64,000 nt of DNA from an uncultured Alphaproteobacteria bacterium (GTDB lineage: Bacteria; Pseudomonadota; Alphaproteobacteria; JALCBB01). Under the pieces are notes generated by a model. It made no database searches. It saw only the letters and a list, made by a program, of their open reading frames with translations, and was not told the origin of the DNA. The stretch's first letter is position 1. Each line of letters opens with the position of its first letter. Below, piece by piece: positions 1-56,859 of the stretch. The position numbers were made by a program, and so were the translations under genes. The stretch is from the NCBI GenBank assembly GCA_958267355.1, contig OY279575.1, positions 41,726 to 105,725 of the forward strand. The letters are read 5' to 3'.

Positions 1-1502
1 GCCGCCCTTAACTGCAGAACCTCCGCCCGCTTACGCCGCAACTCACTCAGAATTACATAAGAAGAAGCAAAAAACCCACCCAAGAGAAGATAAGCAAGAA
101 AAACCGTTGAAGCTGGCATATGCTTTTCCCCAGTAATTGAAGGATGCGCAACCCATCCAATGATTGCCGCGATTACGATAAAGCCAAACAGCAAAAAAGC
201 TTGAGCCCTTGCAGTATAAAACCTTAACTCTTTTTCCTTTCCCCTTTCGCTTGATGTACTCTGCTTCCAAAGTTGCCACCACTTTTCCATTTCACCTTCT
301 GCACTCTCCTTACCCTCCAGAAGCTCTTTAATCAATTCTTCCTGAGCTTCATATTCATCAAAAACTTTTGTTTGATTCTCTGCATCTTTCAACTGACCTT
401 CTAGTATGCTCTTCAGTTTAGTTTCCTGCTCCTCCAGTTTCTTTTTGAATTCTTCTTCGAATTTAGAAATGGATTTTTGATTTTCTTCTTGCACTTTTTC
501 TAGTGCACGACGAGAGTCCCCCGCTTGTGCGTCAAGTTGTTTCTTTACTTCTTCTCTAAGGAGTAATTCTTGTTTCTCCTGTTGCGTTTTTTCCTGCAAT
601 TCTGTTTGCTCTTTAATATCCCCAAGTTGAATTCGTAATTCGCTTCTGAAAGCTTCGGCAAATATTTGAATTTCTCTCTGGGCTATTGCTATTGCACGGC
701 CTTGATAGGCTGGAATATATTTATCATCTAGCTCAATTGCTTTGTTAAAATGAAAGATAGCGTTGCTGTGCTCACCTTTATTGTTGTAAGCCTCTCCTTG
801 ATGAGAGTAATATTTCGCCACTTTGGGACTTTTACGAATTGCTTCATCAAAATTTTCAATGGCGTCGTTGTATTCTTCTTCTTCGCTGTATACCAGTCCC
901 CGATAAAAATAATAATCTGCATTTACGGAGCTTAATGAAATTGCTGCGTCAAAATCTTTAATGGCGAGATGATACTTACCGTTATCATAATGCACTTTCC
1001 CTCGATCGAAATAATAATCCGCCTTTTCGCTGGCTATAAAGATCGCTTCACTTAAATCGTCAATTGCCCGTGTGTAATTTCCTTTTTTTGAGTATGCAAG
1101 TCCTCTTGCGGAATAGTAATTTGCATTCTTTGGGTGTTCCACAATTACCCTGTCATAATCTTTAATGGCTCGGTCGTACTCGCCTTCATTTACATATGCG
1201 AGAGCGCGGCGATAGTAGAGTTCGATGCTTTCAGGATATAGTTCGATCGCTTTATTGTAGTCTGTAATCGCAAATACATAATTTCCATTTTTGTTATATA
1301 TTGCTGCTCGCAAATTAAGGATATCAGCTCTAAGCCTCTTCGGACGTCGACTCTCAACAATGCTTATGTCCCCTTCATCTAAGATGTCTAGACACTTATT
1401 GAGAAGTGCAAAAGCACGTTCTCTCTCTCCGAAGATCTCCAAGAGATCTGATGCTCTTTGAAGGAGAACCCTCACCCGATTAATATATGAATCATCAGCC
1501 AT
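1..1502 (-). CDS. TPR-repeat / coiled-coil / membrane-anchored protein; C-terminus runs off the window (paralog of 1520..3025)
   Basis: Missing from the ORF track because it has no stop in the window. My translation from ATG at 1502 (MADDSYINRVRVLLQRASDLLEIFGERERAF...) stays open down to nt 1. It shows 34-aa units (AIxDYxKAIEL....YY.RG), then an E/K-rich coiled coil, then a hydrophobic segment (FLLFGFIVIAAIIGWV). Confidence 0.75.
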   Translation of the reverse strand, partial: MADDSYINRVRVLLQRASDLLEIFGERERAFALLNKCLDILDEGDISIVESRRPKRLRADILNLRAAIYNKNGNYVFAITDYNKAIELYPESIELYYRRALAYVNEGEYDRAIKDYDRVIVEHPKNANYYSARGLAYSKKGNYTRAIDDLSEAIFIASEKADYYFDRGKVHYDNGKYHLAIKDFDAAISLSSVNADYYFYRGLVYSEEEEYNDAIENFDEAIRKSPKVAKYYSHQGEAYNNKGEHSNAIFHFNKAIELDDKYIPAYQGRAIAIAQREIQIFAEAFRSELRIQLGDIKEQTELQEKTQQEKQELLLREEVKKQLDAQAGDSRRALEKVQEENQKSISKFEEEFKKKLEEQETKLKSILEGQLKDAENQTKVFDEYEAQEELIKELLEGKESAEGEMEKWWQLWKQSTSSERGKEKELRFYTARAQAFLLFGFIVIAAIIGWVAHPSITGEKHMPASTVFLAYLLLGGFFASSYVILSELRRKRAEVLQLRA

Positions 1503-1519
1503 GGCTATATCTTACACTC

Positions 1520-3025
1520 CTAACTAGGATTATTTCCTGTTACTTCTGCCGCGGCTTCTTTAGCCGCCGCGCTTGCAGCTTTTTCAATGATTTCATCAAT
1601 TCCTTCTTGGGTGTGGGATTCGCCTTCTTCATTTTTATCTTTGTTTTTACTTTTTTTAGAGTGGCGCGATTCCCTTATGCGCCAATCCAAGATGAATTCT
1701 GCAGGACTCTTCTCAGAGGCATGCATCATGAATTGTCGAGTCACTTTATACCTTTTTTCCTGATCATTAGGGAAAAAGAGCGGATATTGCGCCAATGTAC
1801 CTTTCCGAAAAGCGTCATGCTCTGCCGCGATATAATGCATCAGCTCTTTGCGTCTTCTGCGTATCTCACTCAGAACTAGGTAGAGAGAAGTAACAAAACC
1901 TACAAACAGAAAGTAGGCAGGGAGAATCTTTGCTGGTATAGAAATTTCCAGCGAATAGGTTGAGAAAACAGTGAAATAAGCAATATAGATAAATCCGATT
2001 AAGACTACGCCTTGGGTTAGGTAGGTTAATCTAGTTAAAATCTCTTCTTTTCTCTGTATAATTTCTCTCAACTCTTTTGCGCGTCCTTGATATTCTTTCG
2101 TAATCCTATCTTGATTAGCTATACTTTCCAGTTGGGTTGCCAACTGTTTTTCCATCTCTACTCTATATATTTCGGCAGACTTCTCGCCTTCTCTTTTTGC
2201 TATTGCCAATGCACGGTTGTGGTAGGCTTGAGTAAATGTTTTGTCTAACTCAATCGCCTTATCATAATCTTCTACAGCACGACCAAAATCGCCTTTATCA
2301 CCATATGCAGTGCCCCTATTATAGTAATAGCTCGGTTCTTTAGGATTTAATTCAATTGCTTTGTCATATTCTTTTATAGAAAGATCTTTTTTACCCATAT
2401 CATCGTATGCAGTGCCTCGATTGAAATAGTATCTTGGATCATTAGGATTTAATTCAATTGCTTTGTTATAGTCGTCAATAGCACGTTCATGTTCTCCTTT
2501 ATCGCCATAAACATTTCCACGATTGGAATAAAAATCAGGCTTTTGGGGATTTAGCTCAATCGCCTTATCATAATCTTTAATAGCGAGATCATATTCCCCT
2601 TTATTGCGATATGCAATTCCTCGATTAAAATAAAGGTTTTCTTCTTCAGGAGATAATTTACTTGCTGTGCTAAAGCTTTCAATAGCGAGGTCATGTTCGT
2701 TTATTGAGTTAAATGCACCCCCCAAATTTGAATGAAATTCCGCTTCATTAGGATTTATTGAAATTGCTTTACTAAAATCTTGCGTAGCAAATTTGTATTC
2801 ATGTTGTTCGTAAAACGCCAAGCCTCGACCATTATAAGCTGCAGCTCTAAGACTTTTAGCTTCTTCAAGCACAGTTTTTTGCAGATCATCCAAGCACTTG
2901 CTGAAAAGTGCGATTGCATTATCGTACCTTTCAGCTTTCAGCTCGTTATACCCAGCTTTCAAGTCTCTTTCAGCAAAAAGAACAACTGGGTTCACAGGAG
3001 TGGAATCTTTATCGTCATCAGCCAT
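1520..3025 (-). CDS. TPR-repeat / coiled-coil / 2-TM membrane protein
   Basis: 501-aa ORF with about 8 consensus-like TPR units (AIKDYDKAIELNPQKPDFYSNRGNVYGDKGEHER...), a coiled coil and two hydrophobic helices. N-terminus is MADD, as in the downstream paralog. AT-rich. Confidence 0.85.
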   Translation of the reverse strand: MADDDKDSTPVNPVVLFAERDLKAGYNELKAERYDNAIALFSKCLDDLQKTVLEEAKSLRAAAYNGRGLAFYEQHEYKFATQDFSKAISINPNEAEFHSNLGGAFNSINEHDLAIESFSTASKLSPEEENLYFNRGIAYRNKGEYDLAIKDYDKAIELNPQKPDFYSNRGNVYGDKGEHERAIDDYNKAIELNPNDPRYYFNRGTAYDDMGKKDLSIKEYDKAIELNPKEPSYYYNRGTAYGDKGDFGRAVEDYDKAIELDKTFTQAYHNRALAIAKREGEKSAEIYRVEMEKQLATQLESIANQDRITKEYQGRAKELREIIQRKEEILTRLTYLTQGVVLIGFIYIAYFTVFSTYSLEISIPAKILPAYFLFVGFVTSLYLVLSEIRRRRKELMHYIAAEHDAFRKGTLAQYPLFFPNDQEKRYKVTRQFMMHASEKSPAEFILDWRIRESRHSKKSKNKDKNEEGESHTQEGIDEIIEKAASAAAKEAAAEVTGNNPS

Positions 3026-3130
3026 GCTGGAATTCTACCGATTCAAAAGTGAAAAATCCATAAAGAATTTAGACAAAAAGCGGAGTTTTCCACAGGGGAG
3101 GGGTGGTTAAGCAACTTGAAGGGGAGGGGT

Positions 3131-3222
3131 TAATTAAACTCCTCGGGGAAGTGGCGGTATAAGGAAAGTACGGGGTTGGCGGTGGCTTGGCCGAGGCCGC
3201 AGATTGAAGCGTAAGTCATCGC
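3131..3222 (-). pseudogene. Detached duplicate of the 3' end of the NuoE/F-like gene (last ~30 codons plus stop)
   Basis: Reverse strand translates AMTYASICGLGQATANPVLSLYRHFPEEFN*. The intact gene end at 4817..4908 reads VMADASICGLGQAAANPVLSLYRHFPEEFS*. By hand count about 81% of ~90 nt are identical, and the differences are mostly synonymous. Confidence 0.7.
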
Positions 3223-3225
3223 TAC

Positions 3226-3906
3226 CTACTCCTTAAAGCCTTTGGATATTTTCTGGTTAAACGCAAGGGGATTATACCAGTAGCAGCCGATGCAGGTGTT
3301 TGTGTATTTGCGTCCGCCTTCGGTTTGTGAGACGGGATAGCCAAGGCGTGTAGCGTCAAAGCGCAAGCCTGTGGCTTTGCACTCTTTGCAGTATTGCCGC
3401 TTGGCGTCGTTTGCCGCTTTAGAAAGCGGTTGAAAGTCGGCTTCGCTCAGTTGGCTAGGGTCGGAGAAACGCGGGTCGTCGTGCCAGCGTCCGTTTTTGT
3501 GGTCGCACTCGGGTTTGCTGGTGCCTAGAACGACACAACGCCGCTCGCGAATGGCTTTGCCTATATGCGCAGGAATTCCCACCAAGGGATTTTCACGAAA
3601 TCCTTCTAACTTTACTGCGGCAATTCTGTTGTTTTCTTTTATGCGTTTTATTTTGTAGTAGCGTCCTAGCGAGCCGCCATCGGTGCGCGACCAAGAGCCG
3701 CCGTTGCCGAACCCTCTTTCCAACTTTGCGTATGCGCCGACAAACTCGGAGCGACTCACTACGCGACTGACTCCGTTTTTGTCGGGTTTTGCCAGTTTTA
3801 CGAAAAGGTAAGCGTAGCTACCTTCTTTAAAGCTCGGAGTCGCACCCTTACCGCCCTTTGCTAAGGCCTTTGTGCTTTTTCTCAAAGAGGGAGGTGTCTT
3901 TGACAT
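3226..3906 (-). CDS. Putative HNH / beta-beta-alpha-Me zinc-containing type II restriction endonuclease
   Basis: 226-aa ORF overlapping the 3' end of the methyltransferase gene. Contains an ECDHKNGRWHD motif plus CKEC and CIGC cysteine pairs. Family not identified. Confidence 0.5.
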   Translation of the reverse strand: MSKTPPSLRKSTKALAKGGKGATPSFKEGSYAYLFVKLAKPDKNGVSRVVSRSEFVGAYAKLERGFGNGGSWSRTDGGSLGRYYKIKRIKENNRIAAVKLEGFRENPLVGIPAHIGKAIRERRCVVLGTSKPECDHKNGRWHDDPRFSDPSQLSEADFQPLSKAANDAKRQYCKECKATGLRFDATRLGYPVSQTEGGRKYTNTCIGCYWYNPLAFNQKISKGFKE

Positions 3907-4717
3907 CGTTAACGCGTTGGCGTGAGGCTTCTACATATTTGGGGTCTATATCGCATCCTGCGAAGTTGCGGTTTAAGGCGATGGCGGCTTCGGCGGTGGT
4001 GCCGCTGCCAAGAAACGGATCAATAACTAGGTCTCCCGCGTGGCTATGGACTTCAACCAAAGCGCGAAACAGGTCTATCGGCTTCTGCGTCGGATGAACC
4101 CGCTTGCCATTATGGCGTGGTATCGGGTGTTCGTAGATGCCGCTGTTATATTTGCTGTTGAAAACGGGCTTGCCGCCTTTGACTCCGCTGACCGCGATTT
4201 CGCGGCTGTTAGAGAGATAGGTTGCACTCTGGTTGAGCGGCACGGGGTTGGTTTTTTGCCAGATAATCAGGCGGATCATCTTGAATCCTGCTTCTGCCAT
4301 AGCGTTGCGCAGGTCTGAGAGTTTCCACAGGTCGTACCAGATGATGGCAGTGCCGCCGTGGCGCAATACGCGGTACGATTCGTCGCATAAGGCGGCAAGG
4401 TCAATGGGTTTTGCGTCCCACGGGCCGAAATCCATGGAGACGGCGAATCGCTCCACGCTATTCTTGCCGATGTTTTTAAAGCCCGTCTCGCGGCTGATGG
4501 CGTAGGGTGGGTCAGTCAGCACAAGGTCAGTGCTTCCCTCGTCAAGCCCGCGCAAAAACTTTCTAAAGTCAGACTTACAGATACGCGGCTTGGCAATCTG
4601 CGGTCTAGAAATGCCATTGGTGCGCACTTGCCCTTGTATCTGGGCGCGTTGCTCTCTGACTTGCGCCTTGCCTTGTTTGTGGGCGGGCTTTTTAGAAGTG
4701 CGGACAGCTAACGACAC
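3848..4717 (-). CDS. N6-adenine/N4-cytosine DNA methyltransferase (beta class, DPPY)
   Basis: Motif IV LVLTDPPYA lies upstream of motif I VIDPFLGSGTTAEAA, the typical N6_N4 methylase order. Confidence 0.85.
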   Translation of the reverse strand: MSLAVRTSKKPAHKQGKAQVREQRAQIQGQVRTNGISRPQIAKPRICKSDFRKFLRGLDEGSTDLVLTDPPYAISRETGFKNIGKNSVERFAVSMDFGPWDAKPIDLAALCDESYRVLRHGGTAIIWYDLWKLSDLRNAMAEAGFKMIRLIIWQKTNPVPLNQSATYLSNSREIAVSGVKGGKPVFNSKYNSGIYEHPIPRHNGKRVHPTQKPIDLFRALVEVHSHAGDLVIDPFLGSGTTAEAAIALNRNFAGCDIDPKYVEASRQRVNDVKDTSLFEKKHKGLSKGR

Positions 4718-4816
4718 GAATCATTCTCCCTTCGTTCTGGCTGACCATACCACATTTTATTTTGATTCGGCTTATATAAACTTCTTAGGCAAAAATTTTT
4801 AAGCAAACTTTTCGGA

Positions 4817-6619
4817 TTAGGAAAATTCCTCAGGGAAGTGCCTATACAAAGACAGGACAGGGTTGGCGGCGGCTTGGCCGAGGCCGCAGATTGAAGCGTC
4901 TGCCATTACGGTGGCTAAGTCTTCTAGCAACTCTTTGTTCCAATCGCTTTGCAGTAGCAACTGTGAAATCTTTTCCGTGCCGTTGCGACACGGAGTGCAT
5001 TGTCCGCACGACTCGTCTTCAAAGAAGCGCATCAAGTTGCGCACTGCGGCGCGTAGATCATCTTGGTCTGACAGCACTACGACGGCACCAGAGCCGATGA
5101 AACAGCCGTGGGGTTGCAGGGTGTCAAAGTCTAGGGGTAGGTCAGCCAGGGAGGCGGGTAGAATGCCGCCTGAAGCTCCGCCGGGCAGGTAGCCGCGTAG
5201 TTTGTGTCCTGTTGCCATTCCGCCGCAGAATTCGTCTATCAGCTCGGTTAGGCTGATGCCAGCGGGAGCGCGTTTGACGCCGGGTTCGGCGACTCGTCCT
5301 GACACTGAGAAAAGGCGCAAGCCTGTGCGTTCGCGCCGTCCGTGGGAGGCAAACCAGCCGTCGGGCTGCTCTAAAATCTCAGGAAGCCACCACAGCGTTT
5401 CAACATTGTGGTTTAGAGTCGGCTTGCCCCACAGGCCGACTTCGGCGATAAATGGCGGACGGTGGCGGGGCAATCCGCGTTTGCCTTCAATGGACTCCAG
5501 CATGGCTGACTCTTCGCCGCAGATGTATGCGCCTGCTCCGCGTCTTACGACGAGCGGACAGTGTTTGTCTAATCCTGCTTTGCGTATTTCTGCCAGCTCA
5601 CGCGCCAGCAGGCTATGCAGCTCAGGATATTCATCGCGCAAATAGATATAGCCTGACTCACATCCTACTGCCCAAGCTGCAATCAACGCGCCTTCCAACA
5701 TACGGTGCGGAGTCTCGCTCAAGCAGTAGCGATCTTTAAAAGTGCCTGGCTCGCCTTCGTCGGCGTTAATCGTCAAGAGTGGAGGCAAGCCGTGTTTGTT
5801 TGCCGCATCGCGCACGGCTTGCCATTTGCGTCCTGCTGGAAAGCCTGCTCCGCCCAGTCCGCGCAAACCCGAGTCGGACAAACGCGCAATCATCGCTTCG
5901 GCTGTGTGCTTGCCTTGCAAACAAGCCCGTAGCAAGTTATATCCGCCTGCGGACTCGTAGGCGGCGAAGTCTTGTGCTTCTGCAGGAGCCGCTACATGAT
6001 GCACTCCGTGCACACCATTGCTGTGCTGTGCATCGCGGCTATTGCTGTGATTTGCGCTACCGCTATTGTTATTCCGTGCCAACGCGCTTGCTTTCTGCAG
6101 GACTTCTTCTGCTTTCCCTGCGGGGCAATTCTCGTGTCCGTAGGCAACAACAGGAGCGTCAGCACACCGCCCCATACAAGGCGCACGAACCACGCGCACA
6201 GTTTCGGGTGCATCGCGCTGTAAAGTTTCTAGCAGCGCGGCACTACCATTCATCTCGCAAGTCAGCGAGTCGCAGACCCGCAGAGTTAAAGCAGGAGCCG
6301 ACTCTCCGTCTTCTACGATTTCAAAGTGGGCGTAGAAGGATGCAACTTCGTATACCTCCGCCATGGGGATACGCAACAACTCGGCGAGCGCGACCAAGTG
6401 GCGGTTTTCGAGTTGTCCGTGTGCGTCTTGTATGCGGTGCAGGTATTCAATCAGCAGTGCGCGTTCGGGTGCTGTGTTTCCGAGCAGAGTCTGTATTTCT
6501 TGGCGGGCTTGCGGCTCGGTGTTGCGTCCGCGTGGAGCATGCAGGGCTTTGCGCCGTCCCGCCCCAGGGTGGATACGACGCGCCGTAGATGAACTGGCTT
6601 GGCTCACGGAAATCTCCAA
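4817..6619 (-). CDS. NAD-linked oxidoreductase, fused NuoE-like (2Fe-2S) and NuoF-like (FMN/NAD/4Fe-4S) domains; formate dehydrogenase beta / HoxF-like
   Basis: NuoE-like VASFYAHF..CDSLTC..CMGRC; NuoF-like GLRGLGGAGFPAGRKW and ESCGQCTPCRNG. A low-complexity insert (NNNSGSANHSNSRDAQHSNGVHGVHH) separates the domains. Confidence 0.8.
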   Translation of the reverse strand: MEISVSQASSSTARRIHPGAGRRKALHAPRGRNTEPQARQEIQTLLGNTAPERALLIEYLHRIQDAHGQLENRHLVALAELLRIPMAEVYEVASFYAHFEIVEDGESAPALTLRVCDSLTCEMNGSAALLETLQRDAPETVRVVRAPCMGRCADAPVVAYGHENCPAGKAEEVLQKASALARNNNSGSANHSNSRDAQHSNGVHGVHHVAAPAEAQDFAAYESAGGYNLLRACLQGKHTAEAMIARLSDSGLRGLGGAGFPAGRKWQAVRDAANKHGLPPLLTINADEGEPGTFKDRYCLSETPHRMLEGALIAAWAVGCESGYIYLRDEYPELHSLLARELAEIRKAGLDKHCPLVVRRGAGAYICGEESAMLESIEGKRGLPRHRPPFIAEVGLWGKPTLNHNVETLWWLPEILEQPDGWFASHGRRERTGLRLFSVSGRVAEPGVKRAPAGISLTELIDEFCGGMATGHKLRGYLPGGASGGILPASLADLPLDFDTLQPHGCFIGSGAVVVLSDQDDLRAAVRNLMRFFEDESCGQCTPCRNGTEKISQLLLQSDWNKELLEDLATVMADASICGLGQAAANPVLSLYRHFPEEFS

Positions 6620-39965: not shown

Positions 39966-41468
<1,503 letters not shown>

Positions 41469-48076: not shown

Positions 48077-48153
48077 GGGCCTGTAGCTCAGCTGGTTAGA
48101 GCGCACGCTTGATAAGCGTGAGGTCGGAGGTTCAAGTCCTCCCGGGCCCACCA
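48077..48153 (+). tRNA. tRNA-Ile (anticodon GAU)
   Basis: gggcctgtagctcagctggttagagcgcacgcttGATaagcgtgaggtcggaggttcaagtcctcccgggcccacca. Folds as a cloverleaf by hand, with encoded CCA. Confidence 0.95.
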
Positions 48154-53245: not shown

Positions 53246-53749
53246 ACTCACGGATTAGGGTGAGCCTAAAGCCACCCCCGAATGGGGCAGGGGCAGGGCT
53301 AAATTCCTCTGAAAATTGGCAGATTCGGGGGGGATTTTGGGGGCAACGCTTGACAACTTGGGGTGCGGGGGGCATTTTATGGCTAGCGGGAGGCTCATAG
53401 AAGGGTCTTCTGTTTCTTTATCTATTCTGCTTTTGCTGGGTTTAGGCGTGGCGGTTGCTTTTGGCGGCGGCACGGACTCGGTGCGGGCTCGTTCGGGCTC
53501 GGCGGATTGTTCTTGCTTATCGTGAAGAGTCTGACCACAGGTGCGAGCCGCGAAAAAAGGCTCGCATCTATGAAGTGCAGATGGATTTGCGCGAGCACTG
53601 CGGTTCCTCGTGGCGAGCGAGCGCGAAGACAATGCCATCTGTATCTTTTTCTAAATATCTTCCATTCACGAAGACTGAGCGGAGCGCGCAAGCAAGCAAG
53701 CAAGCAAGCAAGCGAGGCGGTCCGTGCGGTTCGAGTGGATGCGTTGAGA

Positions 53750-56499
<2,750 letters not shown>

Positions 56500-56743
56500 T
56501 TTCTTTTTCTCGCGCGCGCGTTTTTGTGTGCGTGAGGTGCATTCACCCGTTCCGCACGGCCTGCCTTGGCAGTCCAAAGCGAAATGGAATGGAAGATGTG
56601 AAATGAAAGATAAAGCGCAAAATCTAAAGCGTGGAAGATAAAGCGTGAAAGATGAAGCGTGGAAGATGAAGCGAAAGCTAGCTATAGAGCGTCCGCTTTT
56701 TTCTTGTGGTCAAACTCTTCTAGTTTTGTGGAGGGATTAGTTG

Positions 56744-56859
56744 GTTTGGTGGCTATGGCGGGAGATTAACACCCGATTCCATTCCGAACTCGGCAGTGAA
56801 AGCTCCCCGCGCCGATGGTACTCCGTCTTAAGGCGTGGAAGAGTAGGTCGCCGCCAAAC
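56744..56859 (+). rRNA. rrf: 5S ribosomal RNA
   Basis: gtttggtggctatggcgggag...ccgaactc...gtaggtcgccgccaaac, with an extended flanking stem gggattag/ctaatccc. Confidence 0.9.

Follow-up and report, generated by a model that had tools for sequence, protein, structure and literature searches.

Within a 64,000-nucleotide (nt) stretch of DNA from an uncultured alphaproteobacterium (contig OY279575.1, positions 41,726 to 105,725; hereafter the window), a two-gene restriction-modification (R-M) unit, made up of a methylase gene (M) and a nuclease gene (R), is bracketed by two copies of the 3'-terminal part of a gene for a NuoE/NuoF-fusion flavoprotein (hereafter the redox gene). The unit occupies a variable island that starts inside the last 15 codons of this FdsB-like gene. 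The arrangement is likely to derive from an R-M unit of the kind described as 'insertion with long target duplication', which was later passed between co-living lineages by homologous recombination and brought with it a foreign end for the redox gene, here called the S tail. The features of the site are listed in Table 1.

A repeat search of the window found a gapless direct repeat of 93 nt (3127-3219 against 4814-4906) with 81% identity, its copies 1687 nt apart. Set in codon register, the duplication amounts to 90 nt, corresponding to 29 codons plus the stop of the redox gene on the minus strand, with one copy attached to the gene (4817-4906) and the other orphaned. A first-pass annotation made from the letters alone had already described a gene end present twice, about 81% identical and with a near-perfect core; the duplication and the identity stood, but its coordinates for the orphan were 1-3 nt off, and the near-identical core was measured as 40 nt, one of them mismatched. 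Within the window its pattern is present exactly 2 times, against 0 expected from 100 shuffles. Read along the minus strand, the order is redox gene, 99-nt spacer, methylase, nuclease, the hexamer GTAGCG and a 29-codon orphan open reading frame (ORF), so that M and R, and nothing else, make up exactly the content between the two gene-end copies; the gene coordinates thus bear out the earlier placement of both R-M genes. The attached and orphan copies differ by 11 synonymous and 6 non-synonymous changes (proportions pS 0.54 and pN 0.09), which agrees with the earlier description of the differences as mostly synonymous, and by four amino acids over the 29 codons (A2T, D3Y, A13T and S29N), the 2 of 26 reported previously being true of the stretch then aligned. 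An assembly chimera was excluded because the same structure was seen with two assemblers, on separate contigs (L081 and L086) and in runs from other samples.

Table 1. Features of the R-M insertion site (coordinates are those of the window).
Feature	Coordinates	Strand	Description
Redox gene (NuoE/NuoF-fusion flavoprotein)	4817-6619	-	ORF of 600 aa; gene callers start at 6607 (596 aa)
Core of attached copy	4860-4899	-	encodes (D)ASICGLGQAAANP, the final block of strong conservation in the redox gene
S tail	4817-4859	-	final 14 codons and the stop of the gene as expressed (…VLSLYRHFPEEFS*)
Cassette spacer	4718-4816	-	99 nt, AT-rich
M	3848-4717	-	beta-class N6-adenine (N6/N4) DNA methyltransferase; 289 aa; DPPY and FLGSG motifs
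R	3226-3906	-	type II restriction endonuclease of the NlaIII/IceA1 family (predicted His-Me/HNH finger); 226 aa
Cassette right junction	3220-3225	-	GTAGCG; 6 nt from R stop to orphan ATG
Orphan copy	3130-3219	-	29-codon ORF (MTYASICGLGQATANPVLSLYRHFPEEFN*); core 3173-3212, N tail 3130-3172
Native intergenic DNA	3015-3129	-	C-run leader (CCCCTCCCC…); follows the gene stop in empty-site strains and the orphan here

To decide which copy is native, ten related loci from the same metagenome were compared with the window, which is identical in sequence to locus L081 (0 mismatches in 11,906 nt), on a 1.86-Mb circular HiFi contig of ENA sample ERZ19433661. Seven loci form a clade (the 98% clade) in which the flanks are mutually 97.7-98.4% identical in a star-like pattern. 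Two of them, L082 and L091, are empty sites with no R-M unit and a single gene end; the unit is present in L086 and L087 as well as in the window; L089 has a third type of tail followed by a tetratricopeptide repeat (TPR) gene, and L090 has a tail near-identical to that of L089, which abuts a type III R-M system. Outside the clade, a lineage at 86% redox-protein identity (L083, L084) carries this type II unit in the same position; in a variant form of the lineage (L088, L092, L093) R is deleted and a type III R-M system lies alongside; and a lineage at 80% identity (L085) has no R-M unit.

Up to the 3' edge of the core (…AACCC; …GCCGCCGCCAACCC) the 98% clade shows no difference among its seven loci, which part immediately afterwards into three types of tail: N (…EEFN) where the site is empty, S (…EEFS) where the type II unit is present, and K/E with other cargo. 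The last 45 nt of the orphan were identical to the empty-site allele of L082 and L091 (45/45), as were the next 35 nt past the orphan stop, giving 0 changes in 80 nt; over the longer interval from the orphan into the flank (window 3015-3212, 198 nt) the identity to L082 was 89% over 207 alignment columns. The attached S tail differed from the empty-site N allele at 13 of 45 positions (32/45 match), ten of these changes being synonymous and three lying in the final codon, whereas the window and L082 differ by only about 2% over the preceding 3.1 kb (64/3,099 aligned positions). The S tail is thus a tract distinct from the rest of the gene (Fisher p = 1.6e-11). It is continuous with the spacer, M and R in all three carriers of the clade (window, L086 and L087), and against the outgroups L083, L088 and L085 it shows 8-13 differences in 45, compared with 4-8 in 45 for the N tail. 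On these alignments the orphan tail is the original gene end of the lineage, still joined to its native intergenic DNA, and the attached tail is foreign; since it differs so much more from the empty-site allele than the sequence elsewhere, the S tail arrived with the R-M unit. The first-pass annotation had suggested that one copy came in with the unit from a related lineage and had left open which; the R-M-free relatives identify the orphan as the native copy. These relatives hold one copy of the gene end only, and the orphan is no part of another gene here.

As a consequence of this exchange the expressed redox gene has 14 foreign codons at its end, which encode the same peptide save for the last residue (N to S), and the native gene end now lies 1687 nt downstream as a relic of 29 codons. 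The relic is judged from its sequence to be non-functional; in a public gene call it is entered as a 29-aa product matching NADH_4Fe-4S. The opening 7 nt of the orphan (3213-3219, ATGACTT) hold 3 substitutions, which are three of its 4 differences from the native allele, and we estimate the chance of such clustering at about 0.004. The orphan therefore looks like a hybrid in which positions 3213-3219 are derived from the cassette, and the clustering fits a right-hand crossover inside the core.

Exchange of the unit between lineages was evident from a comparison of the window with L083. Synonymous divergence (dS) was 0.58-0.86 for the permease, binding-protein and redox genes, but only 0.33 for M and 0.17 for R; similarly, the cassette spacers were identical at 95 of 99 positions (4/99 differ), whereas the flanking genes were only about 84% identical. 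Because dS for the cassette is far below that of its flanks, the R-M unit moved between the two lineages after they had split. In L083 the orphan is continuous with the native downstream DNA of that lineage, but it is decayed and carries a 64-nt CT-rich insertion; the GTAGCG right junction of the window recurs in L086, and the homologous junction in L083 reads GGTAGTCGTT. The left edge of the foreign sequence also varied: the window has in common with L083 a patch, some 130 nt upstream of the stop, that is lacking in L086 and L087, and in L083 and L088 S-type sequence is confined to the final codons. Mosaicism extends to the R-M units, as a patch of 13-14 differences in R separates L087 from the window and L086. 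These variable boundaries and the mosaicism indicate homologous recombination rather than the action of a site-specific enzyme. By Pfam annotation, no recombinase, integrase or transposase gene was found in the unit or among the genes within ±8 kb, and the neighbours of the unit are TPR, iron ATP-binding cassette (ABC)-transporter and rpoD genes.

The two genes, judged by their products, make up a complete two-gene type II R-M system. M matched PF01555 with 116 bits, and its best solved relative was PDB 5HEK/5HFJ, 'Adenine specific DNA methyltransferase (DpnA)' (E = 7e-27). R, whose start overlaps the end of M by 59 nt, matched PF05315 (ICEA) with 138.8 bits against a cut-off of 24, and its residues D135, H136 and N166, together with C124, C173, C176, C205 and C208, were invariant among 35 homologues. 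No NCBIfam model matched R, and a PDB sequence search gave no solved relative. An AlphaFold2 model of R had a mean predicted local distance difference test (pLDDT) score of 82, but in a Foldseek search against PDB it gave no match with E < 1, and the HNH nuclease Cap5 (8fmf) appeared only at rank 50. The PF05315/NlaIII-IceA family has been placed in the His-Me/HNH superfamily (PMC5714182), and it is by this placement that a His-Me fold is predicted for R. The specificity of the system is probably CATG, from the family to which R is assigned. The ratio of non-synonymous to synonymous divergence (dN/dS) between the window and L083 was about 0.02 for M and about 0.11 for R, low values that show both genes to be under purifying selection. 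The cassette spacer presumably holds the promoter for M and R, and a GGGAG ribosome-binding site ahead of the GTG start of M; a consensus scan found no sigma-70 promoter in it. In the marine metatranscriptome run X7, a 168-nt contig was 100% identical to the M/R overlap region (window 3783-3949); the unit may accordingly be transcribed in nature, although DNA carry-over would also be possible. In the window as a whole (1-64000), the palindrome CCGG was strongly avoided relative to Markov expectation (observed/expected 0.09; 22 against 236), as were ACGT (0.22), TCGA (0.26) and GGCC (0.28), which suggests long exposure to restriction systems of those specificities.

A route by which the structure could have been assembled can be proposed. 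In some earlier host the cassette would have gained its flanking direct repeats through insertion with long target duplication, its left side then consisting of its own S tail and the 99-nt spacer and its right side of the start of the second gene-end copy. The donor would already have been arranged as gene–core–S tail–M–R–core′ when it met the recipient. Two crossovers would then suffice, the left one in the redox gene and the right one between the core′ of the donor and the single core of the recipient; the 40-nt core is conserved in its nucleotides owing to the ICGLGQ iron-sulfur motif that it encodes. The product would be a hybrid orphan as observed, with its first 7 nt derived from the cassette and the rest native.

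Several points weigh against this reading. A donor of the S tail was not found: the S-tail pattern and the spacer gave 0 matches each in metagenome contigs of the Joint Genome Institute (JGI), and BLAST against 80 distant loci gave nothing above 77.5% identity. The R-M units of the three carriers are 97.5-98.7% identical (1.3-2.5% diverged), about the same as their flanks, so that gain of the unit here is indistinguishable from an old polymorphism with loss in sister strains, and the empty-site allele is precisely what recombination between the repeats would restore. The right-hand homology arm, at 40 nt, is short for recombination of the RecA type, and the footprint of a Campbell-type single crossover, made by a circular form, would be no different. 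Finally, the depletion of CATG in the window is only mild (observed/expected 0.64), several other 4-mers being more depleted.

The similar divergence of the units and the star-like flanks, like the ease with which a crossover between the repeats would restore the N allele, are also what would be expected if the R-M unit and both gene-end copies were ancestral to the 98% clade and the empty sites had arisen by loss, through repeat recombination or allele replacement. We consider this unlikely. It would change the timing only, and the foreign tail would still be S, since it is the N tail that lies nearer to the outgroups. Moreover, the orphan tail of the window is unchanged over the 80 nt compared, whereas the L083 orphan is heavily decayed, and at the patch upstream of the stop L082, L091, L086 and L087 all hold the outgroup-like state.

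Integration of the Campbell type, in which a circle excised between the gene-end copies re-enters a naive chromosome by a single crossover in the core, would leave one copy with a native 5' and a cassette-derived 3' part and the other with a cassette-derived 5' and a native 3' part. Both copies do look like reciprocal hybrids about a shared core, and the same cassette stands beside three native tails or flanks (N here, the L083 type, and the type III flank of L088, L092 and L093). Such a step would be the 'release and reinfection' stage in the virus-like life cycle that the Kobayashi group has proposed for R-M systems, for which, in their account of that cycle, the authors report no experimental evidence yet (PMC2853133). 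The donor-like patch some 130 nt upstream of the stop argues mildly in the other direction, as it lies outside the 90-nt repeat and homology carried by a circle would not transfer it; in addition, no circular or 'goes back' joint was seen in the assembled contigs of public runs, which cannot resolve such joints. We therefore regard this mode of entry as unlikely. It is similarly doubtful that the 40-nt core serves as a recombinase-free 'docking site', at which cargoes (type II R-M, type III R-M, TPR genes) would each carry a private tail and the R-M unit, looped out as a circle with its two core copies, would re-enter any lineage by single crossover, but if this were true the locus would be natural evidence for release and reinfection in the virus-like R-M life cycle.

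Duplication of the target in situ at insertion, followed by mutational divergence of the copies, is the default model of the class, in which the published repeats, as described for the cases presented in PMC2853133, are near-identical; it is highly improbable here, and was rejected, because the attached tail would need about 29% divergence beside about 2% in the adjacent gene (a difference contradicting drift by the Fisher test given above), all changes outside the final codon are synonymous, and the orphan, expected to be unconstrained, is the unchanged copy. Site-specific integration by an integrase acting in trans on an attachment site in the gene 3' end, like that of islands at tRNA genes and gene ends, is barely credible: direct repeats at a gene 3' end with a replacement tail do resemble attL/attR, but no integrase or transposase was found in the unit or the neighbouring genes and no recombinase at either end, the boundary of the foreign sequence differs between carriers, and cargo unrelated to the unit (type III R-M, TPR genes) is joined to the gene elsewhere within its last codons, so this explanation was rejected.

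Spread by homologous recombination, the reading that we prefer, can be set against published R-M insertions. The class was described by Nobusato et al. (2000), as cited in Furuta, Abe and Kobayashi (2010; NAR 38:2428; PMC2853133), and the criteria listed in the latter article are that R and M lie in the insert, that the insert is shorter than 20 kb and the repeat longer than 30 bp, that there is no mobility gene and that a related genome has a single-copy empty site. The present locus, which the first-pass annotation had likened to this class, has R and M in the insert, a period of 1687 nt, a repeat of 90-93 nt and empty sites in L082 and L091. As in the insertions described there (PMC2853133), the repeats duplicate the target, which here is the 3' end of a host gene, and among the examples given the Haemophilus influenzae repeats likewise overlap gene 3' ends. 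One feature differs, in that the repeats are not both from the local target: the orphan tail matches it at 45/45 positions and the attached tail at 32/45. From this divergence of the attached tail, the primary duplication did not take place in this lineage and the structure was imported. In published cases the repeats differ very little from one another or from the target (44/46 and 417/423, for example, among those given in PMC2853133), unlike the copies here, which are 81% identical and of which the upstream one has a tail from another lineage. By this comparison the locus appears to record secondary spread by homologous recombination and not the primary duplication event.

The pairing of a PF05315 nuclease with an adjacent adenine methylase is shared with the Helicobacter pylori iceA1–hpyIM locus and with NlaIII of Neisseria lactamica (CATG). 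The H. pylori locus undergoes allelic replacement (iceA1/iceA2) and frequent decay of the nuclease, and the variants found here with M only or with a broken M parallel the decay of iceA1–hpyIM. The resemblance has its limits: the closest homologues found outside the clade are at most 58% identical and none is a named enzyme, the family link being made via Pfam, and here the host is an uncultured bacterium and the genomic context is different.

The redox protein matched the Pfam families 2Fe-2S_thioredx, Complex1_51K, SLBB and NADH_4Fe-4S, but scored under the NCBIfam NuoF equivalog cut-offs. Its homologues at 58-62% identity carry the source names of formate dehydrogenase beta or flavoprotein subunits, and by this similarity the gene resembles FdsB, the beta (flavoprotein) subunit of NAD-dependent formate dehydrogenase. 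In a scan of one genome per species, relatives of the gene were found only at 51-59% identity, too distant to reveal an empty site.

Each of the related loci presents a different state of the same site. In L086 a 1-nt deletion causes a frameshift in M (L086:5190-6059), with R intact; the deletion sits in a GGG run, and on this low-coverage contig could be either real decay or a HiFi homopolymer error. The same two possibilities apply to the low-coverage contig L090, in which the redox gene (L090:3516-5357) is split by +2 and +1 insertions. L087 has lost the orphan: its right junction reads GGTAGCC and is followed directly by the ATG of a TPR gene, which at L087:6681-6700 (compared with window 3213-3225) takes the position of the orphan ATG behind the same AAGGAG…GTAGC junction. 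A 10-nt string, ATGGCAGACG, is common to redox codon -29 and the start of the TPR gene, and is a plausible microhomology for the deletion or fusion in L087. Type III R-M systems (Mod and Res, opposite strand) occur at the same gene end at L088:6829-11629, L090:5364-10129 and L092:6867-11559; in L088 and L092 the system comes after a methylase copy that has no R and after 24 nt left over from the orphan tail. The joint of this R-deleted variant was also found in contigs from two runs (X5 and X6) of other studies with other organism labels.

The interval between the redox gene and rpoD, from the gene content of these loci, is a hotspot for defence and variable genes. It resembles other defence hotspots between core genes in that its cargo varies (type II R-M, type III R-M, TPR) and in that the boundaries of exchange fall in a conserved flanking gene; it is unlike the usual hotspots in that the left boundary is inside coding sequence and each cargo brings its own last 2-15 codons (N, S, K, E). 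In the window the orphan is followed by two adjacent low-GC (35-42%) genes for TPR, coiled-coil or membrane proteins (3-3025), whose counterparts in sister strains differ completely (about 67% identity or unrelated). Elsewhere in the window, the 16S rRNA gene (39966-41466) lies about 12 kb upstream of the 23S-5S genes (53748-56859), with tRNAs at 48077 and 50729 and other DNA between them, so that the rRNA operon is unusually stretched or split.

Insertions of this kind by R-M systems are already known, and the locus leaves current understanding unchanged; what it adds is a resolved population series and a foreign tail on an expressed gene. It is useful as a worked example and for annotation, since a 29-codon relic has been called as a gene. 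Movement of R-M systems that does not involve an integrase has so far been deduced largely from genome pairs in which the repeats are near-perfect, and here a single metagenome provides an allelic series in which the site is empty, intact in two lineages, with the orphan decayed or lost, with M frameshifted, with R deleted, or occupied by a type III system. What the series indicates is that the duplicated gene end afterwards acted as a homology arm for spread of the unit to relatives, and it shows that a host gene can come to express a foreign, synonymously recoded tail.

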